From Elusimicrobiota bacterium (GTDB lineage: Bacteria > Elusimicrobiota > Elusimicrobia > UBA1565 > JACRDR01), in NCBI GenBank assembly GCA_016194745.1, contig JACQBA010000013.1, positions 256,822 to 320,821 of the forward strand: a DNA stretch of 64,000 nucleotides, read 5' to 3'. A program made the position numbers and the translations under genes. A model generated the notes under the pieces. The model saw only the letters and a program-made list of their open reading frames with translations. It was not told the DNA's origin and ran no database searches. Of the stretch, positions 9,709 through 44,841 are shown piece by piece (positions within the stretch are counted from its first letter, which is position 1; each line of letters begins with the position of its first letter).

Positions 9709-9784
9709 GGGCCGTTAGCTCAATGGTTAGAGCACCGTCCTTACACGACGGGGGTTGGGGGTTCGAGTCCCTCACGGCCCACCA
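9709..9784 (+). tRNA. tRNA-Val (anticodon TAC), encoded CCA
   Basis: Cloverleaf read by hand: acceptor GGGCCGT/ACGGCCC, D-stem GCTC/GAGC, anticodon stem CCGTC/GACGG with loop CTTACAC, T-arm GGGGG-TTCGAGT-CCCTC, discriminator A then CCA. Confidence 0.9.
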
Positions 9785-14967: not shown

Positions 14968-15046
14968 GGGGTCGTGGTGTAGCCTGGCCTAACACGCCGC
15001 CCTGTCAAGGCGGAGACCGCGGGTTCAAATCCCGTCGACCCCGCCA
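14968..15046 (+). tRNA. tRNA-Asp (anticodon GTC), encoded CCA
   Basis: Acceptor GGGGTCG/CGACCCC, D-arm GTGT-AGCCTGGCCTA-ACAC, anticodon stem CCGCC/GGCGG with loop CTGTCAA, T-arm GCGGG-TTCAAAT-CCCGT, discriminator G then CCA. Confidence 0.9.
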
Positions 15047-28290: not shown

Positions 28291-28319
28291 TTGACACATC
28301 CTGCCTTTGCTCCCATACT
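28291..28319 (+). promoter_or_regulatory. Sigma70-like promoter for the sensor kinase gene
   Basis: TTGACA (28291-28296), 17-nt spacer, CATACT (28314-28319), about 55 nt upstream of ATG 28376. Confidence 0.4.
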
Positions 28320-28375
28320 TTGCGCGTGACCCGTTCTCGACGACCGTGAGGATCCGCACCCGCTTCGGGTTGGCC

Positions 28376-30160
28376 ATGAGCGGCGTGGCGGCGGCTAGCT
28401 TTCTATCCGCCTGGTTCGTCTCGTCCTTGGTCTCCGCCAACGTCATCATGGACATGCAGCGGGAGGTGCAGCGCCGGTCCGCGGGCGCCCTCGGAGCGGC
28501 CGCGGCGGCCGCGCTTCGGCCCGGCGCGACGCCGACCGACGTGCTGCGGCAGTTCGTCCGCTTTCTGCCCGCCGTGGCGCCCAACGTCGAGTACGCCTAC
28601 GTCGAGGCGGCGGACGGGAGCATCCTGATGCACACGGACCCCGCCGCCGAGCGGAGCCCCAAGGGCGCCTGGAATCCGGCTCCGGGCACCGCCGACTTCG
28701 CGAAGGCCGCCTCGGACGCCAAAGGTACCGTGGCGACGGCCCACGTGGGCGCGCCCGCCGATCTGGACGCCTTCGTCGCGCGCCGCGTCCGGAGCATCCT
28801 GCTGCCGTCCATCGTCTTGTTCGGCGCGATCGGCGCCGTCATGAGCCTCATCCTGGGCTTCGGCCTCTCGCACCTGATGGTGCGCCCGATCGCCCGGCTC
28901 GCCGAGGCGGCGGAAGAGGTGGGGCGCGGCGACCTCGCGGTCGAGGTGCCGGTCGACTCCTCCGACGAGGTCGGCGAGTTGTCCGGCCGCTTCAACGACA
29001 TGGTCGAGCGGCTGCGCTCGCTCGACGAGATGAAGGCGAAGTTCATCGCGAGCGTCTCCCACGATCTGCGCAGTCCTCTCGCGGCGATCAAGATGTCGCT
29101 GGATTTCCTGCTGCGGGACGATGCGGACAGCGACAAGATCCTGCCGCAGCACCGGCGGACGCTGGCGACCGTCGTGGACGGAGCGTCCCGGCTGAGCGTC
29201 TTCGTCTCCAACATCCTCGACGCCGCGAAGATCGACGCCGGCCGCATGGATTACCGCCTCGAGCCCGTGCGCCTGGAGACCGTCGCCCGCCGGCTCGAGG
29301 AGCTCTACGCGGCCGCCGCGCGGGAGCGCCGGATCGACGTCGATCTTTCGGTCCCGGCGGACCTTCCACCCGCGCTCGCGGACGCGGAGCGGCTCGAGCG
29401 CGTGCTGGCCAATCTCCTCTCCAACGCGCTCAAGTTCACCGGGCCCGGCGGCACGATCCGCCTGCGCGCCCGTTCGGACGGCGGCGGGCTCCTGCTCTCG
29501 GTCTCCGACACGGGCGAAGGCATCCCCGCGGAGGACCTGCCGCGGCTGTTCAAGCCGTTCGAGCAGGCGCACGGCGATGGCCGGGACGCTTCCGGCCGGC
29601 ACGGGACGGGCCTCGGGCTCTACATCGTGAAGGACTCCGTCGAGTCGATGGGAGGGACAGTCTCCCTCGAGTCGACGTACGGCAAGGGGACCACGGTGAC
29701 GGTCCGCCTTCCCGCGGCGGGCGCCGCGCCCGCGCCCGCGGGGCCGCCTCCGTCCGGAACGGTCCCGCCCCGGCCCCGGGCGGGCCGTCCCGCCAAGGTG
29801 CTCGTCCTCGACGATGATTACGCCTCGGCGGAGATCCTCAAGCAGATCCTGGAGTCGAAGGGCTACGAGCCGGTCGCGAGCCGCGACGGGCGCCGCACGC
29901 TGGAACTCGCGCTCCGGGAGAAGCCGGACGCCATCGTCATGGACGTGCAGTTGCGAACGGCGGGCGGCGTCGACATGATGCTCGCGCTGCGCGAGAACGC
30001 GGCCACGTCCAAGATCCCCGTGCTGCTCTGCTCCGCCGCGCCCGACCTGCGGGAGATCGAGCCGGCGCTCGCGGCCGGGGCGTCCTGCTTCCTGTCGAAG
30101 CCCGTGCAGGCCATGGAGCTCGACTTGCGCATCCGCGAGGCGTTGTCCGGAGGATCATGA
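28376..30160 (+). CDS. Hybrid sensor histidine kinase/response regulator (2 TM, HAMP, HisKA, HATPase_c, REC)
   Basis: H-box SVSHDLRSPLAAIK. N/G boxes in the HATPase region. C-terminal receiver with DD...D...K (KVLVLDDD ... MDVQL ... SKP). The track's TTG start at 28307 lies inside the predicted promoter, so ATG 28376 is preferred. Confidence 0.85.
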   Translation: MSGVAAASFLSAWFVSSLVSANVIMDMQREVQRRSAGALGAAAAAALRPGATPTDVLRQFVRFLPAVAPNVEYAYVEAADGSILMHTDPAAERSPKGAWNPAPGTADFAKAASDAKGTVATAHVGAPADLDAFVARRVRSILLPSIVLFGAIGAVMSLILGFGLSHLMVRPIARLAEAAEEVGRGDLAVEVPVDSSDEVGELSGRFNDMVERLRSLDEMKAKFIASVSHDLRSPLAAIKMSLDFLLRDDADSDKILPQHRRTLATVVDGASRLSVFVSNILDAAKIDAGRMDYRLEPVRLETVARRLEELYAAAARERRIDVDLSVPADLPPALADAERLERVLANLLSNALKFTGPGGTIRLRARSDGGGLLLSVSDTGEGIPAEDLPRLFKPFEQAHGDGRDASGRHGTGLGLYIVKDSVESMGGTVSLESTYGKGTTVTVRLPAAGAAPAPAGPPPSGTVPPRPRAGRPAKVLVLDDDYASAEILKQILESKGYEPVASRDGRRTLELALREKPDAIVMDVQLRTAGGVDMMLALRENAATSKIPVLLCSAAPDLREIEPALAAGASCFLSKPVQAMELDLRIREALSGGS

Positions 30161-30855
30161 AAGGCAAGAAAGGAGTCGTGCTGGTAGTCGACGATGACCC
30201 GATGATCCGGGAGATGCTCGAGCCCGCCCTCAAACAGGCCGGCTACGAGACACGCATGACGTCTAGCGCGGACAAGGCGTTCGCCGTCCTCAGGTCGGGA
30301 CCCGTGGATATTCTCATTCTCGATATCGTGCTGCCGGGGATCGACGGGATACAGATGCTCGGCCTCTTGAAGAAGGACGCGGCTACGGCGGGGCTCCCCG
30401 TGCTCATGCTGACGAACCAAGTCTCCGAACGCAGCAAAGTGTCCGGCTTGAAGACGGGCGCGGACGACTACGTGGTCAAGCCCTTCTCGATCCACGAGCT
30501 CCTGGCCCGGGTCGAGGCCCTGCTGCGGCGATCGCAGCGCTCCGGCCGCATGGACGCCGTGCTCGAGGCGGGAGGGATCGTCATGAACATCGACGCGCGT
30601 TCCGTGACGGCGAACGGCAAGAAGGTCGACCTGACCGTCATCGAGTTCGACCTGCTGGCGCTCCTGATCCGGCGGGAAGGAAACGTGCTCTCCTACCAGG
30701 CGCTTTCCGACGCGATGTCCGAAGGCGCGCGCATCATGACGTCCGAGTCGGTCTACAACCACGTCAAGAACATCCGCGCGAAGCTGGGGGGCGCCGGAAA
30801 GCGCATCGAAACAGTCCACGGCATCGGCTACAAGTTCGACCGCGACGCGAAATAA
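30157..30855 (+). CDS. OmpR-family response regulator (REC plus winged helix)
   Basis: VLVVDDD ... DILILDIVLPG ... KP receiver. C-terminal trans_reg_C (winged-helix, IGYKF). Start overlaps the kinase stop. Confidence 0.9.
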   Translation: MKGKKGVVLVVDDDPMIREMLEPALKQAGYETRMTSSADKAFAVLRSGPVDILILDIVLPGIDGIQMLGLLKKDAATAGLPVLMLTNQVSERSKVSGLKTGADDYVVKPFSIHELLARVEALLRRSQRSGRMDAVLEAGGIVMNIDARSVTANGKKVDLTVIEFDLLALLIRREGNVLSYQALSDAMSEGARIMTSESVYNHVKNIRAKLGGAGKRIETVHGIGYKFDRDAK

Positions 30856-32112: not shown

Positions 32113-32730
32113 TCAACGCACCGGAACCTTCACAAGCTCGACATTGGGTCCGTCGATCACCACCGAGACATAGTACTTGTAGCCCGGGTCCGGCGCCTTG
32201 AAATTCCCCACGAGGCGCCCGTATTCCCTGACGTCGCCCGTCACCTCGTCGATTTCGACGCTGCGCTTCTTGACCTGCTCCGACAGACGCAGGTAGTCCG
32301 CCAAGGTCCCGTCGCCGTATTTCACCCGGACGATGCGCCCGCCGTCACCCGTCAGCTCGCTTTGGACTTTCTCCGCCGCGCTTTGGAATGCGGCGCCGCG
32401 CGGATCGGGCCCGAGCTGCAGATGCAGGTTCCCGCGGAAGACGCCGTCCTTATAGATGCCGACCGACTTGCACCTGCAGTCCGGAGTCATCGTGGCCGGC
32501 CCGAACCGCACCCTGTAGCGCTCCTCCAGAGCGTCCAACACGTCCTTTATGATCAAAGCCTGCTGGTGCGCCCCTCTTGCGTCCTCTAGGCGTTCCGGCA
32601 TCCGTCGGCCCAAATCCTTGGCCGCGTCCATCACTCGGGGCTCTCCGCCGTCCGCCCTGGTTCCGAGCGCCGAAAGGACCGCGCCTGCGATCACCATCCA
32701 AGTGCTAGGCTTCATCGTGCCTCCCCTCAC
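32113..32730 (-). CDS. Secreted protein of unknown family, paralog 3 of a tandem triplet
   Basis: Signal peptide. Shares TPDCxCKSVGxY, DPRG, YGDGxLADYLRxS and EVTG blocks with 32727-33332. Confidence 0.6.
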   Translation of the reverse strand: MRGGTMKPSTWMVIAGAVLSALGTRADGGEPRVMDAAKDLGRRMPERLEDARGAHQQALIIKDVLDALEERYRVRFGPATMTPDCRCKSVGIYKDGVFRGNLHLQLGPDPRGAAFQSAAEKVQSELTGDGGRIVRVKYGDGTLADYLRLSEQVKKRSVEIDEVTGDVREYGRLVGNFKAPDPGYKYYVSVVIDGPNVELVKVPVR

Positions 32731-33332
32731 TGTCGTCGCGTCGGGATCTTCAGGAACTCGATGTCCTTCCCATCATCGTTTACCGACACCCAGTAGCGAT
32801 AGCGACCGATCTCATCCTTGAAGTTGTCCACGACCTGACCGCGCTGCGTGATCTCTCCCGTGACCTCGTTGACGCCGATCTTGTTGTCCTCCCGCTTCAT
32901 TGCCCCGGAGATGCGAAGGTAGTCGGCCAAGCTCCCATCCCCGTACCGCAGGGAGACGAATTCGGCGCCGCTCCGGCTGCTCAGGTGTCGTTGGAGCTGA
33001 TCGGCCCATTTCTGAAAGTCCGTCCCGCGAGGATCCTGCAGAAGTTCCAAGTGAACGTCTCCGAGGAACTCCTTGCCTCTGTAAAGACCCACGGACTTGC
33101 AGGGGCAGTCAGGCGTAGTCGTAGGCTCACGGAACGTGATCCCGTACCGGTCTTCCAGCGCCTTGAACACGTCCCGTTCAGGCCGGAGGAGCTGGCGTTC
33201 CCGCCTCAGGTCCTCTCGACGCGTTCTCAATCGTTCGATCGCCCCGGCGCCGCGCGTCTCCGCGCTGGCCTCGCTCTCCCAGAAGACTCCCGCGGACAAC
33301 AGTACCGCCGTGATCCAAAGCACGCGCATCAT
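32727..33332 (-). CDS. Secreted protein of unknown family, paralog 2 of a tandem triplet
   Basis: Signal peptide MMRVLWITAVLLSAGVF. Conserved blocks shared with 32113-32730. ATGA overlap with the downstream paralog. Confidence 0.6.
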   Translation of the reverse strand: MMRVLWITAVLLSAGVFWESEASAETRGAGAIERLRTRREDLRRERQLLRPERDVFKALEDRYGITFREPTTTPDCPCKSVGLYRGKEFLGDVHLELLQDPRGTDFQKWADQLQRHLSSRSGAEFVSLRYGDGSLADYLRISGAMKREDNKIGVNEVTGEITQRGQVVDNFKDEIGRYRYWVSVNDDGKDIEFLKIPTRRQ

Positions 33333-33333
33333 G

Positions 33334-33795
33334 TTATCGCCTCCTGCCGCATTCCTGAATTCCGGTACGCGGGTTCGCTACGCAATCGACGTCCTGTCGC
33401 TCGGAACCCTGCCGGCGCTCGAGCTCGAGCTTCTCCCTAGCCTTGCGATTGAACAAGTCCTCTATTTTGGCGGTCCAATTCTCCATTCCTCCGGGGCCCC
33501 CGGGGGAGTAGTACGAACGGATGGTTCCGACGTATTTTCCATCCTTGTGGACCTCGAGCATGGCGCACTGGCAGCCGGCCTCGTAGGTTGTCGGTTCTAT
33601 GAGCTTTATCCCGAACTTCTCCTCGAGAGCTCGACGCGCTTTCATCGTATTCTCCCTTTGCTCGTGTTCCGATTGGACCCGTTTCCCAAGTCTATTGGTC
33701 AATTCTCCGATCGGTTCGGCGGCGTACGCCGCTCCCGACAAGAACACCGCCGCCGCGATCGCCGCCACCTTCTCGTTCCAGGAATTGCGTGTCAT
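33334..33795 (-). CDS. Secreted protein of unknown family, paralog 1 (N-terminal module only)
   Basis: Signal peptide. ALEEKFGIKLIEPTTYEAGCQCAMLEV aligns with ALEDRYGITFREPTTTPDCPCKSVGLY and ALEERYRVRFGPATMTPDCRCKSVGIY of the neighbours. Confidence 0.55.
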   Translation of the reverse strand: MTRNSWNEKVAAIAAAVFLSGAAYAAEPIGELTNRLGKRVQSEHEQRENTMKARRALEEKFGIKLIEPTTYEAGCQCAMLEVHKDGKYVGTIRSYYSPGGPGGMENWTAKIEDLFNRKAREKLELERRQGSERQDVDCVANPRTGIQECGRRR

Positions 33796-34552: not shown

Positions 34553-34719
34553 ACGCGGAGGATATCGAAATCTACGCCGGTACCGCATCCGCCGATCGGC
34601 TCCCGCCGCCGAAGGGCCGAAGACCCACGATCTTGCGGCGCCGTGACGGCCCCGTGACGCGGTATTGACGGTTTCCGTTTATCCTGATAGACTCAGAGCG
34701 GTCCCGCTTTCCTTATAGA

Positions 34720-35697
34720 ATGACATCTTGTGGCAGATCGTGGGCATTGGCCGCCGTACTATCCTGGGCGTCGGCTACGGCTATCGCGCAGGTGAAAGCC
34801 GCTCCCAAACCGACGAACGCGCCGACCGATCTTGTCATCATCTTCGACACGAGCGGGAGCATGGGCGACCGGCTTCCCGCCGGACGCAAACTCGACATCG
34901 CCAAGGCCGCGATGTGGAAGTTCGTCGACGCCTTGCCCAAGAGCGTCAACGTCGGCCTGGTGCGCTACAGCGACTACAACGACTGCGGCGCGAAAGTCGT
35001 ATCGCCCATCATGAAATCTTCGCCCGAAAACCGCGCCCAGTTGAGGTCCGCCATCGCCTCTCTGCGCGCCTACGGCAACACGCCAATCGGCGCCTCCCTG
35101 CGGCGCGCGACCGAGCTCCTCGAATCCTCGAAGGGCAAGAAGCGGATCGTCGTCATGACCGACGGCGAGGACACCTGCAACGAGGCGGAAGTGGGGCGCG
35201 CCTCGGACGAGGCGTGGAAAAAAGGGATCAAGGTCTACGCGATCGGCTTCGCCTTCGGCGCGCTTCCCAGCAAGACGCTGCGCCGCATCGGCATATACAA
35301 GGACGCCAACGACGACGCGCAGCTCGCTTCCGTCTTCGCGGACATCAAGAAATCCCTCGAGCGGGAACCGGGCAAGTTCGACGAGGGCAGGCGCGACCCG
35401 GCTCTCGCCGAAACCCCGCCGGTATCGCTCAAGGGCAAGAGCGGCGCCTTCAGATCGTCGGGGCCTCACGCGGGCAAGCTGTTCAAGACGCTGCAGCTCA
35501 ATTCGTCATACGAGCACCGGTTCGACGAGAACGACCGGTTCACGGTGCTCGAGCACGGCTACCACGTGCTGTTCAACGAGCAGGAGTACATGGTGGACAA
35601 GGTCGAGGTGATGCGCGTACGGCTGGAGGAAAAGTTCAGCTTCATCTACGGCGGCGTCGAGGGATTCGTTTTCGCGCAGGACGTGACGGTACGATAG
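34720..35697 (+). CDS. Secreted von Willebrand factor type A (VWA) domain protein
   Basis: Signal peptide. MIDAS residues DTSGSM ... T ... MTDGEDT. Confidence 0.8.
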   Translation: MTSCGRSWALAAVLSWASATAIAQVKAAPKPTNAPTDLVIIFDTSGSMGDRLPAGRKLDIAKAAMWKFVDALPKSVNVGLVRYSDYNDCGAKVVSPIMKSSPENRAQLRSAIASLRAYGNTPIGASLRRATELLESSKGKKRIVVMTDGEDTCNEAEVGRASDEAWKKGIKVYAIGFAFGALPSKTLRRIGIYKDANDDAQLASVFADIKKSLEREPGKFDEGRRDPALAETPPVSLKGKSGAFRSSGPHAGKLFKTLQLNSSYEHRFDENDRFTVLEHGYHVLFNEQEYMVDKVEVMRVRLEEKFSFIYGGVEGFVFAQDVTVR

Positions 35698-35722: not shown

Positions 35723-36448
35723 ATGTGGGCAAGGTTCACCAGGCTAATACGAGCGTTCGCCGGCTTCTTCATCAGCACGATGGAGGACCCGAAGATGATC
35801 CTCGAGCAGACGATGCGAGACATGCAGGACAAGATCCCCGTCATGAACCAGGGCTTGGCCAAGGCGCGCGGCGGGATCATCATGCTCGAGAACGAGGCGA
35901 AGCAGTATGAGCGCGAGGTCGCCCTCCTGACGGCCAAGATCAAGGCCTGCGTCCAGAACAAGGAAGAGAGCCTCGGCGCCCAATACGCGATCCGCCTCAA
36001 GAAGACGCAGGAAGCGCTCGCCCGCAACCGCGAGCAAAGCGCCGCGGCCAAAGCCGGCTACGAGTCCCTCTTGAAGATGAAGGAGAAGTTCATGCGCGAG
36101 ATGAAGGCCAAGACCGAGGAGGCGATGGCCGCCATCCGCGACGCCGAGGCCTCGAAATGGAAGGGCGAGCTCGCCGACGTCTTCGAGCAGTTCGAGGTCG
36201 CCGGTGTCGACGCCACCTACGACGAGATGCTCGGCAAGCTCCGCCAGAAGAACGTGGAGGCCGAGGGGCGTCTCGCCATGGCCGCCGACAGCATCGACTC
36301 CAAGGCCATCGAGATCGACGAGAAGGCCGAGACGCTGGAAGGCAAGGAACTCTTCAAGCAGTTCCAAATGGAGATGGGCGTCGCCGACTCCGGCGACGGC
36401 AAGAAGGAAGAAGGCAAGAAAACGATCGGCATGAAGGAGAAAGAGTAA
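35723..36448 (+). CDS. PspA/IM30 (Vipp1) family protein, ESCRT-III-like
   Basis: N-terminus MWARFTRLIRAFAGFFISTMEDPKMILEQTMRDMQ matches the PspA/IM30 start (amphipathic helix plus EDPEKMLEQ...RDM). Long coiled-coil remainder. 241 aa. Confidence 0.8.
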   Translation: MWARFTRLIRAFAGFFISTMEDPKMILEQTMRDMQDKIPVMNQGLAKARGGIIMLENEAKQYEREVALLTAKIKACVQNKEESLGAQYAIRLKKTQEALARNREQSAAAKAGYESLLKMKEKFMREMKAKTEEAMAAIRDAEASKWKGELADVFEQFEVAGVDATYDEMLGKLRQKNVEAEGRLAMAADSIDSKAIEIDEKAETLEGKELFKQFQMEMGVADSGDGKKEEGKKTIGMKEKE

Positions 36449-38158
36449 ATGGAACTCAAGCTCGGCGGCAAGATCGCGCTGCTTCTCGTCATCCTGGGCC
36501 TCGGCCTCGGAGCCCTGTACAAATTCGGCCTGATCTCGGGCACCGGATTGCCCGGGAGCGGAGGCGCCGGAGCGGCCTCCCCCATCAAGAAGGAGACCCT
36601 CGACAAGATCCGCAAGGGCGAGGAGACGCCCACCACGGCGAAGAACTACAACTTCGTCGCCAAGCAGTCGATCACCGAGGTTAAAGGCACGAGCAACTAC
36701 CAATTCAAGGACAAGACGGTCGTCTTCCCGATCAACATCTGGGGCGGCTGGGCTCCCATCATCGCGGCCAACAACGGCTTCGGCCCGAACAAGGACTCGC
36801 TGTTCTTCAAGAACTACGGATTCCTGGTGGACTTGAAGCTCATCGACGACCCGGTCGCGGCGCGCGACGCCTTCGCCTCCGGACAGTCCCACGTCCTATG
36901 GGGTACGCTCGACATGATCGCGCTCTTCGCGCCGGGCCTGTCGCGGGACTCGCGTACCACGCCGATCGTCTTCCAGCAGATCGACTGGTCGAACGGCGGC
37001 GACGGCATCGTCGTCCGGGCGCACATCAACGAGGCGAAGGACCTGCGGGGCAAGACGATCGTGCTCGCGCAGAACTCGCCCTCGCACTACTACATCCTGA
37101 GCGTGCTGACGGACGCGGGCATCTCGCCGTCGGAGGTGAACTTCAAATTCACGGCGACCGCCTTCGAGGCCGCCAAGGCCTTCGTCGACAACGCCGGGAT
37201 CGACGCCTGCGTATCCTGGGCGCCGGACATCTACAACATCGTCGACGAGAAGTACGGCGGCAAGAAGGGCGGCGTCCAAGGGGCGCGCCTGCTGACGACG
37301 ACGCGCGACGCCTCCCAGCTCATCGCCGACGTGTGGGCGGTGCGGGCCGACTTCGCGCGGGACCACAAGGACATCGTCAAGGGACTCGCGGCCGGGATCT
37401 TCAAGGGCTACGACCTGGTCAAGCAGGACGGGCCCAAGATCGCGGCGCTGATGGCGAAAGGCTTCGGCGTGTCGGTGGACGAGGCGAAGTCCATGATGAT
37501 GGACGCCCACCTGACCAATTACCTGGAGAACAAGAAGTTCTTCCTCGACAAGGACAACCCGGCGAACTTCGCGCGCACGTGGGCGGCCGCGAGCTACGTC
37601 TACAAGGCGTACGGCGCCATCGGCACGCCCACGCGGGCCGAGGAGATCGCCGACACGACGGTCCTCGGCGAGCTCGACGGGCAGTTCCCGCACCACAAGG
37701 ACGAGTACATCCCGGCCTTCAACAAGGTGAACATCTCGCGCATGAAGCTCGAGAGCCAGCCTATTCTGACGAAGTCCGTCATGATCTCGTTCCCGCCCAA
37801 CCAGTGGGCGCTCGACCGCAAGTACGACCAGAACATCGACAACGTGCTCGAGGAGTCCGCGAAGCTCTCGGGCAAGTTCGCCGCCGCGCGCATCGTGATC
37901 GAGGGCAACGTGGACACGAGCCGCAAGATCGAGTTCCAGCGCGAGGGGCCGCGCGTGTTCAAGGAGATGTCCTTGGCCGTGCAGGAGCTCAGCGAGAAGC
38001 GCGCGGAGTCGGTCAAGCAGGCGATCGTGAACAAGTTCAAGTTCAACCCGAACAAGCTCGCCGTGATCGGCAACGGCTGGGACAACCCGGCGTCGCTGAC
38101 CGACCACACGAAGAACCGCCGCGTCGAAATCAAGGTCTATCCGCCCGAGGCCGAGTAG
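36449..38158 (+). CDS. Membrane-anchored ABC substrate-binding protein (NMT1/NitT-TauT type) fused to a C-terminal OmpA-like domain
   Basis: N-terminal TM KIALLLVILGLGLGALY. NMT1/SsuA-like binding fold. C-terminal ~110 aa with OmpA-C-like blocks (LSEKRAESVKQAIV ... NRRVEIKV). ATG immediately follows the PspA TAA. Confidence 0.7.
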   Translation: MELKLGGKIALLLVILGLGLGALYKFGLISGTGLPGSGGAGAASPIKKETLDKIRKGEETPTTAKNYNFVAKQSITEVKGTSNYQFKDKTVVFPINIWGGWAPIIAANNGFGPNKDSLFFKNYGFLVDLKLIDDPVAARDAFASGQSHVLWGTLDMIALFAPGLSRDSRTTPIVFQQIDWSNGGDGIVVRAHINEAKDLRGKTIVLAQNSPSHYYILSVLTDAGISPSEVNFKFTATAFEAAKAFVDNAGIDACVSWAPDIYNIVDEKYGGKKGGVQGARLLTTTRDASQLIADVWAVRADFARDHKDIVKGLAAGIFKGYDLVKQDGPKIAALMAKGFGVSVDEAKSMMMDAHLTNYLENKKFFLDKDNPANFARTWAAASYVYKAYGAIGTPTRAEEIADTTVLGELDGQFPHHKDEYIPAFNKVNISRMKLESQPILTKSVMISFPPNQWALDRKYDQNIDNVLEESAKLSGKFAAARIVIEGNVDTSRKIEFQREGPRVFKEMSLAVQELSEKRAESVKQAIVNKFKFNPNKLAVIGNGWDNPASLTDHTKNRRVEIKVYPPEAE

Positions 38159-38167
38159 GCGGCGCTC

Positions 38168-38974
38168 ATGATGCTGGCCCCCGTGCAGTTCAAGATTCGG
38201 GGCGACTCCGCCCCGAGGAGCCGTTTCCTCCTCGGGGCGGCGAGCGTCACGATCGTCCTGCTGCTCTGGTGGCTGCTGACGGCGGGCGAAAGCGTGGAGA
38301 CGCGCTACCTCAGCCCGCAGATTCTTCCTAACCCGGTGGAAGTGCTGCAGTCGTCGGGCTCCCTGTACACGGAGCGCAACCTGACGACCAGCATCGCCTA
38401 CAGTTTCTTCCGGACCACGGTCGGCTTCCTCATCGCGGCGCTCATCGCGGTGCCGCTCGGGATCCTCATGGCGTCGTTCACGTCCGTGCGGGACTTTTTC
38501 CGCCCGCTCAGCACGATCGGCGGCTACATCCCGATCGCAGTGCTCGTCCCGCTGACGCTGTCGTGGTTCGGGCTCGGGGAGAAGCAAAAGATATTATTTC
38601 TCGCCATCGCGACGTTCGTGATGCTCCTGCCGCTGATTGTCAACGCCATCGACCAGGTGGACGACGTCTACCTGCAGACGGCCTACACGCTCGGCGCCAC
38701 CCCGTGGCAGACCGTCTTTTACGTGCTTGTCCCGGTGGCGCTCGTGGGGATATACGACTATCTCTGCTTGACCTACGGCATCGGCTGGGGATACATCATC
38801 CTCGCCGAGGTCATCGACGCGCGCTTCGGCCTTGGGAGCCTCATCATCACGTCCCAGCGTCGGGGCCCGTACGAGCACGTCTACGCGGTCTTGATCGTGA
38901 TCATACTCATCAGCATCTTGATCAACAACGCGCTCGCGTACGTCGGCAAATGGCTGTTCCCCTATCGAGAGTGA
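38168..38974 (+). CDS. ABC transporter permease (NitT/TauT family, BPD_transp_1)
   Basis: Six TM segments with the EAA-like loop, 268 aa. Confidence 0.85.
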   Translation: MMLAPVQFKIRGDSAPRSRFLLGAASVTIVLLLWWLLTAGESVETRYLSPQILPNPVEVLQSSGSLYTERNLTTSIAYSFFRTTVGFLIAALIAVPLGILMASFTSVRDFFRPLSTIGGYIPIAVLVPLTLSWFGLGEKQKILFLAIATFVMLLPLIVNAIDQVDDVYLQTAYTLGATPWQTVFYVLVPVALVGIYDYLCLTYGIGWGYIILAEVIDARFGLGSLIITSQRRGPYEHVYAVLIVIILISILINNALAYVGKWLFPYRE

Positions 38975-38976
38975 CC

Positions 38977-39876
38977 ATGGACCTTCGCGGAAAGATCGGC
39001 GGCGCCGTCTCGAGGATCCGCGGGCTGTTCGCCCGGCCGGAAGCGCCCGCGCAGGACCCGGCGCGGTTCGCCGCCTACTCGGACACGTCGATCCCGGTGA
39101 TCGAGTGCAAGAACGTCACCAAGATCTTCAAGGATCGCCGCACCGGCAAGGAATCGATCGCGCTCGAGAACGTGTCGTTCACGATCGAAGATCTTCCCAA
39201 TATGGGCGAGTTCATCACGATCCTCGGCCCCTCGGGCTGCGGGAAGAGCACGCTGCTGAACATCATCTCCGGCCTGGAGCCGCACTACCCGCAGACCAAG
39301 GGCGAGGTGAAGGTCAAGGGCGCCCCGGTGGCGGGCCCGGGCTCCGACCGCGGCATGGTTTTCCAGAGCTACTCCTCGTTCCCGTGCTACACCGTGCTCG
39401 AGAACGTCGCGTTCGGGCTCATGCTCAAGGGCGCGCCGGAGAAGGAGCGCGAGGACATCGCGGCGGATTGGATCAAGAAGGTTAAGCTCGCCGGATTCGA
39501 GCGGAAATACCCCAAAGAGCTCAGCGGCGGCATGCGCCAGCGTGTCGCGCTCGCCCGGACGCTCGCGGTCAATCCGAGGATCGTTCTCATGGACGAACCC
39601 TTCGGCGCGCTCGACCGCATCACCCGCTGGGAGATGCAGGACCTCCTCATCGAACTATGGGAGAAGGTCCAGGCGACCGTGTTCCTCGTGACGCACGACA
39701 TCCCCGAAGCGGTGTATCTGGGCGACCGGCTGTTCTTGATGACGCCGCGGCCCGGCCGCCTGACCGAGATCGTGAAGCTCCCCCGGCCCACGGAGAAGGC
39801 CGCCGAGATGCAGCGCACCTCCCGCTTCGCGGAGACCGTCAACGAGATCAGCCGCAAGGTGGAGTCGATCCACTAG
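38977..39876 (+). CDS. ABC transporter ATP-binding protein (NitT/TauT family)
   Basis: Walker A GPSGCGKST, signature LSGGMRQRVALAR, Walker B IVLMDEPFGALD, H-loop VTHD. MVFQ...FPCYTVLENVAFGL is typical of SsuB/TauB-like ATPases. The track ORF start at 38563 is a frame run-on through the permease, so the real start is ATG 38977. Confidence 0.9.
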   Translation: MDLRGKIGGAVSRIRGLFARPEAPAQDPARFAAYSDTSIPVIECKNVTKIFKDRRTGKESIALENVSFTIEDLPNMGEFITILGPSGCGKSTLLNIISGLEPHYPQTKGEVKVKGAPVAGPGSDRGMVFQSYSSFPCYTVLENVAFGLMLKGAPEKEREDIAADWIKKVKLAGFERKYPKELSGGMRQRVALARTLAVNPRIVLMDEPFGALDRITRWEMQDLLIELWEKVQATVFLVTHDIPEAVYLGDRLFLMTPRPGRLTEIVKLPRPTEKAAEMQRTSRFAETVNEISRKVESIH

Positions 39877-39879
39877 CCC

Positions 39880-40704
39880 ATGGCCGACAAGATCAACTAC
39901 GTCAAGGAGGCGTTCAAGCGCCAGGAGAACCTGATCACCCTGGCCGGACTGGGCGTCGCCGGCGTGGCGTTCAATGCGGGATTCCTCCTCTTGGGCGGCG
40001 CCCTCGAGCTGGCCTATCTCTGGCTCATCTCGTCGAATCCGCGGTTCCAGCGCGTCGTGAATTCCGAGAAGAGCCAAGCCCGCCTGCGCTTCGACCAGTC
40101 CGAGAAGGACAAGCTCGCCGCCGCCCTGCCGATGAACGAGCATCGCCGCTTCCAGGAGCTCCAAGGCGTGCGCCAGCGCGTCTACGAGGCCTGGCAGGCC
40201 CGGGACGCGGTCACACAGTCGCTCCTGCAGCCGAGCGTCGACAAGCTGGACTACCTTTTGGATACTTTCCTGCGCGCCCAAGTGACCCTGCACCACATGC
40301 GGTCCCACCTGGCGTCCAGCGACCGGGCGTTCCTTCAGAAGCAGGCGCAGATGATCGAGGCGGAGATCGCGCGGGGGCTCACGGACAAGGTCCGCGAGGT
40401 GAAGGAGCGCAACTTGGACATTCTCAAGCAGCGCCTGGCGAAGCTCCAGAAGCTGCAGGAGGACCAGGAAATCGTCAAGACGCAGCTCGATACCCTCGAG
40501 AACGCGATCAAGTTCGTGAGCGACCAGTCCGTATCGCTCACGGATCCTCAGCAGATCACGGGCCAGATCGACCGGGCGGTCTCCGAGGTAGGCGACACGG
40601 AGCGCTCTCTGCAAGAAGTCGAATCGTTTCTCGGCATGCAGGAAGGCGTCGACAAGAAACAGGAGGGCGCGGCGCGGCAGCAGGCGCAGCAGAAACAAGA
40701 ATGA
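39880..40704 (+). CDS. Membrane-anchored coiled-coil protein, unknown function
   Basis: One N-terminal TM/hairpin (LITLAGLGVAGVAFNAGFLLLGGALELAYLWLI), then ~200 aa of predicted coiled coil and a Gln-rich tail. Confidence 0.55.
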   Translation: MADKINYVKEAFKRQENLITLAGLGVAGVAFNAGFLLLGGALELAYLWLISSNPRFQRVVNSEKSQARLRFDQSEKDKLAAALPMNEHRRFQELQGVRQRVYEAWQARDAVTQSLLQPSVDKLDYLLDTFLRAQVTLHHMRSHLASSDRAFLQKQAQMIEAEIARGLTDKVREVKERNLDILKQRLAKLQKLQEDQEIVKTQLDTLENAIKFVSDQSVSLTDPQQITGQIDRAVSEVGDTERSLQEVESFLGMQEGVDKKQEGAARQQAQQKQE

Positions 40705-42407
40705 GCCTCGAAGGATATCCCGGCTGGGCGAAGGACCTGGCGGACCGCTACATGAGCGGAGCGTCGTCGCTGTTCTTGATCTACGGGAACGTCAACGACT
40801 GGGTGCCCCTGCGCGAGGGCGGCAAGGTGCGCTTCGTGTCCCTGCCCGAGTTCCTCAAGACCGCGGTCTTCGGCAAGCGGGAGATGGTCCTCCAGTACGA
40901 CCAAGGCAGCGGCATCACCATGAGCCGCGACATGGTCACCGATTTCTACAAGGTCGTCGAGGCGATGGACGCCGCCGCCGGCACCGGCTACGCCAAGCGC
41001 CTGCCGAAGGCTCCCGCCGAGGCCCTCGCGGTGATCGACCGCTACCTGCGCACCCGCGCCTCGGCCAAGGGCGGCACCGCGGCCATCATCGACTACGCCC
41101 ACATGGTGGCGCCGCGTAGCGACGTCCAGTTCATGAGCCAGGAGGATTTCCGGACGATCATCCTTCTGCAGAAGTGGGCGAACGATCCGGAGCTCTCCCG
41201 CTCCGACGTGACGATCGCGCTGGTGACCGCGAACCTCCAGGACTTGAACGAGGCGATCATCAACAATCCGTTCACCTCGAAGGTCGAGATTCCGCTCCCC
41301 GACGAAGCCGAACGGCTCGAGTACATCCAATCCACCGCCCTTCAGGTCAAGTACGAAGGCCTGACGCCGGAGACCTTCGCCCGGCAGACGAACGCGCTGT
41401 CGCGGGTCGACATCGAAGTCATCCTGCGCGAGGCGCAGCGGGTGGGCAAGCTCGACCTGGGCTTCGTCGCCAAGAAGAAGAAGGAACTCATCGAGAAGTC
41501 CTGCTTCGGTCTGCTCGAGTTCCTGGAGCCGCGGGCGACCCTCGATGCGGTCCAGGGACAGGGCGCCGCCAAGCAGCGCTTGCGCGAGGACATCGAGCTC
41601 ATCAAGAAGGGGCAATGGGACGCGCTGCCCATGGGATACCTGTTCTGCGGCCCGGTCGGCACGGGCAAGACATATCTCGCGACCTGCGCAATCGGCGAAC
41701 TCGGCGTGCCCTGCGTCCAGCTCCTTAATTTCCGCTCCAAATGGGTCGGAGCGACGGAAGGCAACCTCGAGAAGATCCTGCTCACGCTGCGCGCCCTCGG
41801 CCCGGTCGGGGTCATCATCGACGAGGCCGACGCCTTCATGGGCAGCCGCTCGCAGGACGGCGACAGCGGCACGTCCAACCGCATCTTCGCCCAGTTCGCG
41901 AGCCAGATGGGAGACACCAAGTACCGCGGCAAAATCCTATGGTTCCTCCTGACCTGCAGACCCGACCTGCTTCCCGTGGACATCAAGCGGCAAGGACGCG
42001 TCGAGATCCACATCCCCCTCTTTTATCCGCAGACCGACGCCGAGAAGGGAGAACTCTTCGTGGCCATGTCGAAGAAGCAGAAATGGCCGATCGACGCCAA
42101 GGACGTCGACCCCTCGAGCTTCAATGGCAAGAAATTGTCGGGAGCCGACATCGAGGCCATCCTCGTCAGCGCCAAGCGCAAGAGCCTCCTCGACGGCGAC
42201 GCCAAGGAGAAGAAGCACTACCTGAAGCTCGCGGCCACGGACTTCATCCCCGCGACGAGCTCTTCCGAGGTCCAATACCAGGAGCTCGCCGCGGTCGTGG
42301 AATGCACGGACCGAGGCTTCCTCCCGGAGATCTACCGGAAGGCCGACCGCCTCGAGCTGCTCAAGGAGTTCAACCGCCTCAAGCTCGTCCTCGGAGAGGC
42401 CGCATGA
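40701..42407 (+). CDS. AAA-family ATPase (classical clade) with a degenerate N-terminal AAA-like domain
   Basis: C-terminal domain has Walker A GPVGTGKT, Walker B VGVIIDEADAF and second region of homology TCRPDLLPVDIKRQGRVEIHIPLFYP. The N-terminal ~270 aa lack a P-loop but keep an AAA-like segment (TIALVTANLQDL...FTSKVEIPLPDEAERLEYI). ATGA overlaps on both sides. Confidence 0.8.
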   Translation: MSLEGYPGWAKDLADRYMSGASSLFLIYGNVNDWVPLREGGKVRFVSLPEFLKTAVFGKREMVLQYDQGSGITMSRDMVTDFYKVVEAMDAAAGTGYAKRLPKAPAEALAVIDRYLRTRASAKGGTAAIIDYAHMVAPRSDVQFMSQEDFRTIILLQKWANDPELSRSDVTIALVTANLQDLNEAIINNPFTSKVEIPLPDEAERLEYIQSTALQVKYEGLTPETFARQTNALSRVDIEVILREAQRVGKLDLGFVAKKKKELIEKSCFGLLEFLEPRATLDAVQGQGAAKQRLREDIELIKKGQWDALPMGYLFCGPVGTGKTYLATCAIGELGVPCVQLLNFRSKWVGATEGNLEKILLTLRALGPVGVIIDEADAFMGSRSQDGDSGTSNRIFAQFASQMGDTKYRGKILWFLLTCRPDLLPVDIKRQGRVEIHIPLFYPQTDAEKGELFVAMSKKQKWPIDAKDVDPSSFNGKKLSGADIEAILVSAKRKSLLDGDAKEKKHYLKLAATDFIPATSSSEVQYQELAAVVECTDRGFLPEIYRKADRLELLKEFNRLKLVLGEAA

Positions 42408-43105
42408 GCCTCGGCGACTGGCTCGACAAGTACGTCATCAGCATCGGGCCGCGCAAGGACGCGCCGCCCTCGGGCGAGGTGGACCTTTCCGAGATCGGCC
42501 TCAAGGCGGACGGCAAGATGGATGCGATCGCGGCTCAGGTGGACGAGTCCAAGCTGCGCGCGGTCCCCGGCTTGGACACCCCGTTCCAGAAAATTTACGA
42601 CGCCGCCCGCATCGCCGTGCCCGAGCACAAGTTCACGGTGGAAAAGATCGGCGAGATGCTCGCCCATCCTAAGCTCGCCTCCCTCGCCCGCGAGGCCAAG
42701 GCCGCGGCCGTCCTCGTCGCCCTCGACGCGCAAGGCGTCTCCATCAACAGCGTCCTCGAGGACGCCGTCAAAAAGGACCGCGCGCTCGACATCTTCGAGA
42801 AGGTCCAGCGCGACCACCTGAAGCAGTCGGTGCAGGCCAAGGAGGAGGAAAACCGGCGCCTCGTCGAGGAGATCGAGAAGGTCACGCGGGAGAAGCAGAA
42901 GCTCATCGAGGACAACAAAAAGGCCATCGTCGACATTCAGGCGAAGGCGGCAGACTGGCTGGAGCGGAAGCGAGCCATGGAAAACAACCTCCACGAGATC
43001 GTCCAGCATTTCACGACGGACAATCCGATCACGATCGAGGCGATCGAACTGCCCGCGGCCACGGTAAAGATCACGGACCTCACCCAGCCGAAGAAGGGCT
43101 CATGA
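42404..43105 (+). CDS. Hypothetical protein (C-terminal coiled coil)
   Basis: 233 aa. Translationally coupled to the AAA ATPase gene. No recognisable domain. Confidence 0.55.
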   Translation: MSLGDWLDKYVISIGPRKDAPPSGEVDLSEIGLKADGKMDAIAAQVDESKLRAVPGLDTPFQKIYDAARIAVPEHKFTVEKIGEMLAHPKLASLAREAKAAAVLVALDAQGVSINSVLEDAVKKDRALDIFEKVQRDHLKQSVQAKEEENRRLVEEIEKVTREKQKLIEDNKKAIVDIQAKAADWLERKRAMENNLHEIVQHFTTDNPITIEAIELPAATVKITDLTQPKKGS

Positions 43106-44406: not shown

Positions 44407-44841
44407 CTAGACGTGCGCGGCGAAAGACACGCGCCGGACGACCTCTCCGGCCTTGCGGGGAGTGGTTTTGAGAGCGATGTCCGCCTGAGACACGATGCCG
44501 ACGCAGCGTCCGTCCTCATCGACGACGGGCACCCGACGGATCTGGTTCTCCTCGAGCAGCCGGCAGCATTCCTCGATCCCCGTTTCCCGCGTCACGGTGA
44601 CGCAGTCGTTGGTCATGCAGTCCCGCGCCTTGGCCTGCTTGGCGTCGACGCCGCGGGCGACGACGCGGCATGCGATGTCGCGGTCGGTGATCACGCCGAT
44701 CGGACGCATAGAACTCTTGCCGTCCACCACAGGGATCTCCCCGCAGTCGTGGTCGCACATCATCCGCGCGACGGCCTGAACGTCGGTATCCGCGGTGCAG
44801 CACGCCGGATTCTCGGTCATGACGTCCTTTACATGTTGCAT
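44407..44841 (-). CDS. CBS domain pair protein
   Basis: Two CBS motifs (VKDVMTENPACCTADTDVQAVARMMCDHDCGEIPVVD ... IRRVPVVDEDGRCVGIVSQADI). Confidence 0.8.
   Translation of the reverse strand: MQHVKDVMTENPACCTADTDVQAVARMMCDHDCGEIPVVDGKSSMRPIGVITDRDIACRVVARGVDAKQAKARDCMTNDCVTVTRETGIEECCRLLEENQIRRVPVVDEDGRCVGIVSQADIALKTTPRKAGEVVRRVSFAAHV

Follow-up and report, generated by a model that had tools for sequence, protein, structure and literature searches.

A solute-binding protein with a predicted peptidoglycan-binding domain in a PspA, ABC transporter, and AAA+ ATPase operon of an Elusimicrobiota bacterium

Does a periplasmic binding protein that carries its own predicted peptidoglycan-binding domain, and that is encoded directly behind PspA, serve solute uptake, or does it hold and sense the cell envelope? 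The question is raised by one gene in a 64,000-nucleotide stretch of DNA (the window) from an Elusimicrobiota bacterium. The gene encodes a solute-binding protein (SBP) fused to an OmpA-like domain, here called SBP/OmpA, and a preliminary description of the window had read the product as a bridge between inner membrane and peptidoglycan. That reading as a whole is partly supported. We lean, if only slightly, toward SBP/OmpA as the dedicated periplasmic receptor of the adjacent ABC transporter inside a six-gene envelope module, with a transport-coupled function. The architecture and its gene context were already known, because Ravi et al. (mSystems 2024, PMC11237479) published the same gene order; the window is one more member of that described operon, from an Elusimicrobiota metagenome-assembled genome (MAG), with extra accessory genes.

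Gene and domain architecture

The protein and its parts were placed as follows.

36449 to 38158, plus strand: SBP/OmpA fusion protein, 569 amino acids (aa), NCBI MBI3549697.1 (open reading frame [ORF] list, Pfam, homologs, AlphaFold2 [AF2] model)
36461 to 36523, plus strand: N-terminal hydrophobic helix, aa 5 to 25, a probable uncleaved signal-anchor, with a disordered linker (aa 26 to 60) after it
36626 to 37678, plus strand: periplasmic binding-protein domain, NMT1/SsuA/TauA-like, aa ~60 to 410
37754 to 38155, plus strand: predicted OmpA-like peptidoglycan-binding domain, aa 436 to 569

SBP/OmpA was a 100% match to MBI3549697.1 ("OmpA family protein [Elusimicrobiota bacterium]"), encoded on a 386-kb MAG contig. 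Its ATG directly abuts the stop codon of PspA (TAA, 36446 to 36448) and is preceded by a Shine-Dalgarno sequence (AAGGAG) 9 nt upstream. Full-length homologs at 48 to 86% identity were found in many phyla, and SBP/OmpA is therefore a real gene rather than a chance ORF in GC-rich DNA. The gene was confirmed as first described, with the exact coordinates and with both quoted motifs (LSEKRAESVKQAIV and NRRVEIKV) within the translation; the three-part architecture (hydrophobic N terminus, NitT/TauT-type binding fold, and OmpA-like C terminus) and the zero-gap position behind PspA were likewise borne out.

The AF2 model (built on 58 homologs; mean pLDDT, 89.5; pTM, 0.84) contained a two-lobed alpha/beta domain at residues ~60 to 410, superposable on TauA/SsuA, and Pfam NMT1 (PF09084) matched residues 119 to 326 with 27.4 bits (curated cutoff, 20.5). 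A short connector of lower confidence led to a compact alpha/beta domain at residues 436 to 569 with the OmpA-C/Pal/MotB-C fold. Pfam OmpA (PF00691) matched residues 448 to 556 with 36.7 bits (curated cutoff, 27.2), rising to 40.0 bits when the C terminus was scanned alone. The family profile aligned with the Acinetobacter baumannii OmpA C-terminal domain (3td3; E 1.7e-16) across the motifs IEGHTD, LSLARA, and NRRV, so that D489 pairs with the Asp of IEGHTD and R518 with the Arg of LSLARA. D489, R518, and N556-R557-R558 were invariant in all 58 aligned sequences. In A. baumannii OmpA, the diaminopimelate of peptidoglycan is held by D271 and R286, the counterparts of this Asp and Arg. Because the family profile matches 3td3 and the motif residues are invariant, the OmpA-like fold proposed for the C terminus holds, in both profile search and structure comparison. 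A 969-aa relative (P0286) carried two tandem binding domains followed by an OmpA-like C terminus (RGHADP, LSQQRAESV, and NRRVEF motifs).

A conserved six-gene operon

SBP/OmpA is the third gene of a compact plus-strand cluster in which neighboring genes overlap or are separated by gaps of 0 to 25 nt. The five partners that recur with it are as follows.

35723 to 36448, plus strand: PspA/IM30, ESCRT-III superfamily (Pfam PspA_IM30, 45.5 bits against a cutoff of 33.9)
38168 to 38974, plus strand: ABC permease, BPD_transp_1, TauC/SaoP-like (Pfam E 1.2e-20; NCBIfam TauC E 1.7e-29, under the equivalog cutoff)
38977 to 39876, plus strand: ABC ATPase, TauB-like (Pfam ABC_tran E 5.5e-30; NCBIfam TauB 231.6 bits)
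39880 to 40704, plus strand: X1, a membrane hairpin (aa 15 to 52) with long helices, assigned to no family (AF2 pLDDT 80.8, all helical)
40701 to 42407, plus strand: AAA+ ATPase (Pfam AAA E 3.1e-23 at residues 315 to 440), its ATG overlapping the X1 stop codon

The profile of the operon's PspA family matched Vipp1/PspA structures (E 3e-7). Read from sequence, the permease retains an EAA-type coupling loop, and the ABC ATPase has intact motifs (Walker A GPSGCGKS, signature LSGGMRQR, Walker B LMDEPF, and H-loop VTHD). The C-terminal half of the AAA+ ATPase was closest to the D2 domain of Cdc48/p97 (PDB Cdc48/VAT D2, E 2e-28), with Walker A (GPVGTGKT) and Walker B (IIDEAD) present in this classical domain; the N-terminal ~300 aa gave no Pfam match.

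Relatives of SBP/OmpA were encoded in 349 of 185,579 species genomes (one genome per species). Locus counts refer to the best 80 loci among these 349 genomes, all 80 of them MAGs. Most were labeled Acidobacteriota; the other labels were Elusimicrobia, Wallbacteria, Planctomycetota, Fibrobacterota, Riflebacteria/Ozemobacter, BRC1/Sumerlaeota, Fischerbacteria, Calditrichota, Deltaproteobacteria/Desulfatitalea, and Gammaproteobacteria. The order PspA, SBP/OmpA, permease, ATPase, X1, Cdc48-like AAA+ was held across at least 10 phyla. Searched by tblastn with the window proteins, the region downstream of SBP/OmpA contained the permease in 74 loci, the ATPase in 68, and X1 and the AAA+ ATPase in 57 each, the missing partners lying mostly at contig ends. 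The PspA profile recognized the ORF directly upstream in 60 of 69 loci, and X1 kept a constant position between the ABC ATPase and AAA+ genes. Independent gene calls on a 2.36-Mb contig gave the same six genes. Clustering of flanking ORFs from the 80 loci found nothing shared beyond this core except a second SBP/OmpA paralog in 8 loci. In L021, L032, L053, L066, and others, PspA was flanked on both sides by an SBP/OmpA paralog; the loci identified belong to the Riflebacteria/Ozemobacter group.

Between Elusimicrobia and Acidobacteria, identity was 48 to 50% for SBP/OmpA, about 25% for PspA and X1, and 37 to 40% for the AAA+ ATPase. SBP/OmpA is conserved at about the level of the permease and ATPase and far above its cytoplasmic partners.

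Searched exhaustively, 1.84 billion cluster representatives (50% identity) yielded 194 matches at E ≤1e-30 and, with the threshold relaxed to E ≤1e-10, 947; both domains were present in 78 of the best 150 matches. The architecture had been called uncommon. In absolute numbers it is rare (349 of 185,579 genomes; 194 of 1.84 billion representatives), but it belongs to a conserved, already described family that spans many phyla.

N terminus: anchor or signal peptide

The bridge between membrane and wall depends on what the N-terminal helix does, which was judged by comparing the longest apolar run and the linker length in 115 full-length relatives. The longest run measured 18 to 19 aa in 86 of them and 16 aa in a further 20, including the protein studied here. 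In most homologs an aromatic belt, Y-[YF]-F (L-Y-K-F in this protein), closes the run, and R/K-D comes next. Behind the run, anchor-type homologs carry a linker of 30 to 60 aa, with 80 to 120 aa between Met1 and FPIN, the earliest conserved motif of the binding domain. AF2 modeled residues 5 to 25 of SBP/OmpA as one unbroken helix and residues 29 to 47 as disordered (pLDDT below 50). This pattern among homologs favors a helix that is probably an uncleaved inner-membrane anchor with a tether.

The alternative is a cleaved signal peptide, by which the mature protein would be a soluble periplasmic protein with peptidoglycan as its only attachment and no membrane-wall bridge. Semiconserved small residues of the form A/G-x-A/G (AGA, GGA, or GLGA) just before the aromatic belt could permit cleavage, and Ravi et al. 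label this N terminus "SIG" (PMC11237479). Canonical cleavable signal peptides (apolar run of 11 to 14 aa, A-x-A, then Q-E) were present in 4 of 120 close homologs and apparent in two more (P0089 and P0094), so not every family member needs a membrane anchor. The anchor-type N termini nonetheless form a separate class, with apolar runs of 16 to 19 aa against 11 to 14 aa and a conserved interface motif, Y-[YF]-F-[RK]-D. The linker was deleted in exactly the four signal-peptide relatives analyzed, in which Met1 lies only 50 to 54 aa from FPIN. Distant relatives hold the same SBP/OmpA module by a lipobox cysteine or by a transmembrane (TM) segment behind a kinase domain, and these are also membrane tethers. 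With the unbroken helix of the model added, cleavage of this protein appears doubtful.

Binding domain and candidate ligand

If SBP/OmpA is a receptor, its nearest characterized counterparts are E. coli TauA and SsuA (PDB 6ssy and 2x26), likewise encoded beside a TauC-like permease and a TauB-like ATPase. Identity to them is about 20%, they are without the N-terminal anchor and linker and the C-terminal OmpA-like domain, and the operon of SBP/OmpA is not a sulfur-assimilation operon. Equivalog cutoffs of NCBIfam were far from reached by the TauA model (NF008553, 46 against 490 bits); the putative urea-transporter SBP model TIGR03427 scored 56 bits (cutoff, 333.9), and the SsuA family model scored 47.2 bits (cutoff, 163.5).

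The ligand contacts of TauA were taken from the literature (Gly61, Gly79, Glu106, Thr132, Trp176, Asp205, and Gln30; PMC6906117) and transferred to SBP/OmpA through the profile alignment. In TauA, Glu106 and Asp205 hold the taurine amino group, the backbone glycines Gly61 and Gly79 hold the sulfonate, and Trp176 is reported to contact the morpholino group of MES (PMC6906117). Three of these positions were kept as family invariants (Glu106 as D185, Asp205 as D294, and Trp176 as W257). Gly61 is replaced by an invariant proline (P135) and Gly79 by an invariant aspartate (D155); Thr132 corresponds to P211, inside an invariant S210-P211-S212 motif, and Gln30 falls outside the alignment. Because the amine-contacting residues are kept and the sulfonate-contacting glycines are not, the ligand is probably not a sulfonate. 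With low confidence, we suggest a small solute bearing a primary amine or ammonium group.

Assignment as a taurine, sulfonate, or urea binding protein was rejected in view of the equivalog scores and the altered sulfonate-contact residues. The broader proposal, that SBP/OmpA is an ordinary nutrient SBP for taurine, alkanesulfonate, or nitrate, with the PspA adjacency due to chance and the OmpA domain a minor decoration, is hardly credible. The TauA and TIGR03427 scores and the exchange of Gly61 and Gly79 for Pro and Asp speak against it, as does synteny with PspA, X1, and the AAA+ ATPase, which holds in at least 10 phyla and at ~30% identity. A Pfam scan of the operon found no TauD/SsuD-type genes.

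One distant locus (L084) has an amine-oxidase/FAD-family gene (1211 to 2671) between its AAA+ and SBP/OmpA genes, with a VWA gene after them, an arrangement of possible relevance to an amine ligand.

Receptor or sensor

A complete TauC-like permease and TauB-like ATPase directly downstream make SBP/OmpA the likely receptor of what looks like a working importer, and they count against the first suggestion that the protein is structural or sensing rather than engaged in uptake. The sensing half of that suggestion keeps some probability, because distant relatives are fused to a Ser/Thr kinase or lie beside a nucleotide cyclase.

As a receptor, SBP/OmpA would be exported by its N-terminal helix, which would then remain in the inner membrane as an anchor while the disordered linker (~35 residues) allowed the folded part to extend to the cell wall. 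There, reversible binding of peptidoglycan would be the role of the OmpA-like domain, as it is in MotB and TagL. The binding domain would capture the proposed small solute, with its primary amine or ammonium group, and pass it to the permease, and import would proceed at the cost of ATP. On the cytoplasmic face, PspA and X1 may stabilize or remodel the membrane, with the AAA+ ATPase recycling both. By these steps, the module would couple the uptake of one solute at the wall/membrane interface to membrane maintenance. Lipoprotein variants among the distant relatives, which likewise tether the module to the membrane, are in keeping with this, and Ravi et al. arrived at the same reading from domain architecture alone (PMC11237479).

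Several points weigh against a transport receptor of this kind. The residues before the aromatic belt and the published "SIG" label both speak for cleavage of the helix. The proposed ligand comes solely from the TauA sequence alignment at ~20% identity. Some distant relatives are without ABC genes and stand in signaling contexts, as a kinase fusion or as neighbors of cyclase and GTPase genes. Genes that would break down or assimilate an imported solute were not conserved in or beside the operon (Pfam, flanks of the 80 loci). A receptor attached to the wall may be out of reach of the permease in the membrane, a geometry that fits sensing or gating better. In the literature, we found no experimental work on the ligand, peptidoglycan binding, or topology of any member.

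Distant relatives occur both with parts of the operon and in signaling contexts. Among loci at ~30% identity, L086/L087 retain an X2-like gene (X2 is described below), SBP/OmpA, the permease, the ATPase, and an X1 homolog (E 3e-42), and L084 encodes an AAA+ ATPase 58% identical to that of the window together with its amine-oxidase-like, SBP/OmpA, and VWA genes. P0260 (L083, 1443 to 4190) is a 915-aa protein in which a Ser/Thr kinase domain and a TM segment precede the SBP and OmpA module, a sensor-kinase architecture with the module as ectodomain. P0174 adjoins a nucleotide cyclase and a small GTPase on a contig without ABC genes. L012 (7342 to 8952), which comes from the Planctomycetia MAG that also contains L011, encodes a second, orphan SBP/OmpA paralog. 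This protein lacks the linker and begins with a canonical cleavable signal peptide; its gene belongs to no transporter or PspA operon, and its neighbors are unrelated (TMEM43-like, HMGL-like, and a branched-chain amino-acid ABC ATPase).

The chief competitor of the receptor is a sensor or tether that is not an importer. Attached at both ends, the protein would report on a ligand in the periplasm, on the condition of the peptidoglycan, or on how far apart membrane and wall are. The ABC proteins would act mainly as a transducer controlling the assembly of PspA and X1 on the cytoplasmic face, the AAA+ ATPase would reset the system, and net import would be incidental or absent. It is favored by the signaling architectures of the relatives (P0260 with its unambiguous TM segment, P0174, and the orphan of L012 outside any transporter operon), by a strict coinheritance that involves PspA, X1, and the AAA+ ATPase but no metabolic genes, and by docking geometry, since wall attachment would fit poorly with shuttling to a permease. 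Against it, the permease is an ordinary type I importer subunit, the ATPase is closest to TauB, and no output domain has been added to either. The kinase fusion is represented by one metagenomic sequence, which lies on a 4.9-kb contig and is 31% identical to SBP/OmpA. Membrane-tethered SBPs that serve real importers are, moreover, common in Gram-positive bacteria and archaea. We consider such a sensor or tether possible but less likely than the receptor.

A further and quite improbable reading makes SBP/OmpA the periplasmic input arm of an envelope-spanning, ESCRT-like repair machine. Tethered to wall and membrane, the protein would read a ligand or the wall-membrane spacing and gate an ABC engine that nucleates PspA and X1 polymers on the cytoplasmic face, which the Cdc48-like AAA+ ATPase would recycle; the ATPase would then be a bacterial functional counterpart of Vps4 on ESCRT-III. 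According to a 2025 review of ESCRT-III systems in bacteria, a Vps4-like ATPase "appears absent in bacteria" (PMC7619361).

Ravi et al. describe "longer operons" with PspA, a membrane-associated Snf7-like protein, and a two-domain AAA+ ATPase (PMC11237479), and they call X1 "SIG+TM+Snf7." That Snf7 assignment was not reproduced here, though it was not disproved. Profile-profile comparison of X1 with the operon's PspA family (hhalign) gave a probability of 0.8%, a Pfam scan of 26 X1 members at E ≤1 gave no match to Snf7, PspA, or any other family, and a Foldseek search with the AF2 model gave nothing at E ≤0.001, the best ESCRT-III match being CdvB2 (E 0.13).

Relation to known systems

The closest published counterpart is in Table S3 of Ravi et al. 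(PMC11237479). For OGG56892.1 (Candidatus Handelsmanbacteria), it lists PspA, SIG+PBPB+OmpA, a permease, an ABC ATPase, a membrane helical protein, and an inactive-AAA plus classical-AAA protein, and the authors suggest peptidoglycan as the target of the OmpA domain and the transported solute as that of the PBPB domain. They also describe a version without the OmpA domain in Archangium gephyra. The window has the same six genes in the same order, with matching domain architectures for PspA, SBP/OmpA, the permease, the ABC ATPase, and the classical AAA domain, and X1 agrees with the published membrane protein in size, position, and membrane hairpin. The Elusimicrobia version adds a VWA gene upstream and X2, X3, and a TrkA-N protein gene downstream. 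The N terminus is a signal peptide in that account, whereas the evidence here favors an uncleaved anchor. Both studies are in silico. A second PSP phylogenomics paper (PMC9239133) makes no mention of the operon.

Inner-membrane-anchored OmpA-like proteins are known from type VI secretion (TagL/TssL) and flagellar stators (MotB/PomB). SBP/OmpA differs from them in the 350-residue solute-binding domain placed between anchor and OmpA-like domain, and its partners are an ABC transporter, PspA, and an AAA+ ATPase in place of a secretion system or motor.

Binding proteins of diderms are usually soluble. The tethered SBPs of Gram-positive bacteria and archaea are lipoproteins, are TM-anchored, or are fused to the permease, as in OpuA. 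They resemble SBP/OmpA in keeping the receptor beside the importer by a tether and flexible linker; they differ in being without a wall-binding domain, and the hosts of SBP/OmpA are mostly diderm phyla.

Since the protein itself had been described, the value of the locus lies in the system that it marks. Added here are the structural confirmation of both folds, the invariance of the predicted wall-binding residues, the residue-level departure from TauA, the two N-terminal classes, the extent and limits of the synteny, and the failure to reproduce the Snf7 assignment of X1. In hundreds of species, the operon combines PspA with a neighboring AAA+ ATPase of the classical clade and with a transporter whose receptor is predicted to be fixed to the wall. 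The system thereby bears on the regulation of bacterial ESCRT-III-type proteins. If the parts work together, recycling of PspA polymers, a relay from periplasm to PspA, and the identity of the solute become directly testable. The host phyla are poorly studied (among them Elusimicrobiota, Acidobacteriota, Planctomycetota, Riflebacteria, and Fibrobacterota), and any biochemical result would be the first for the system.

Accessory genes and surroundings

Around the six-gene core, the cluster in the window contains the following features.

34665 to 34693, plus strand: possible sigma-70-type promoter (TTGACG, 17-nt spacer, TAGACT) ahead of the cluster's first gene (consensus match only)
34720 to 35697, plus strand: secreted VWA-domain protein, a lineage-specific accessory (Pfam VWA E 1.3e-19; signal-peptide-like N terminus)
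42404 to 43105, plus strand: X2, coiled-coil accessory protein, its start overlapping the AAA+ stop codon
43102 to 43701, plus strand: X3, 199 aa, of uncertain operon membership, its start overlapping the X2 stop codon
43701 to 44396, plus strand: TrkA-N membrane protein, its start overlapped by X3

The stop/start overlaps and short gaps, mostly of 0 to 3 nt, between PspA and X3 indicate a single transcription unit. VWA, X2, and X3 are lineage specific. The VWA protein carries a DTSGS MIDAS-like motif, and its gene stood upstream of PspA only in Elusimicrobia among the 80 loci. X2 was found by tblastn in only 3 of them; a homolog (31% identity, E 1e-11) at L086 1020 to 1631, upstream of the distant SBP/OmpA gene, suggests that X2 may be a mobile accessory part. 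X3 was not conserved in the other loci compared, and its only match was a weak one to DUF6782, a putative metallopeptidase family (E 0.016).

No sigma-54 consensus was found near the operon, and window-wide matches were at chance expectation. A sigma-54/PspF-type promoter as in classical psp operons was rejected on these grounds. An antiphage defense system was also considered and rejected, PADLOC having given only generic ABC (mad3) and AAA (IetA) similarities.

About 4 kb upstream of the operon, histidine kinase and OmpR-type response-regulator ORFs were recognized by eye (28307 to 30855, plus strand); only 3 of the 80 loci had such a pair close to the operon. Three tandem paralogous small proteins of 205, 201, and 153 aa are encoded at 32113 to 33795 (minus strand), with signal-peptide-like hydrophobic N termini and an invariant C-x-C; the second is 40% and the third 19% identical to the first. 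An apparent CBS-domain-like protein, also recognized by eye, is encoded convergently at 44407 to 44841 (minus strand). The sole Rfam/ARAGORN matches in the window were tRNA-Val(TAC) at 9709 to 9784 and tRNA-Asp(GTC) at 14968 to 15046, both on the plus strand.

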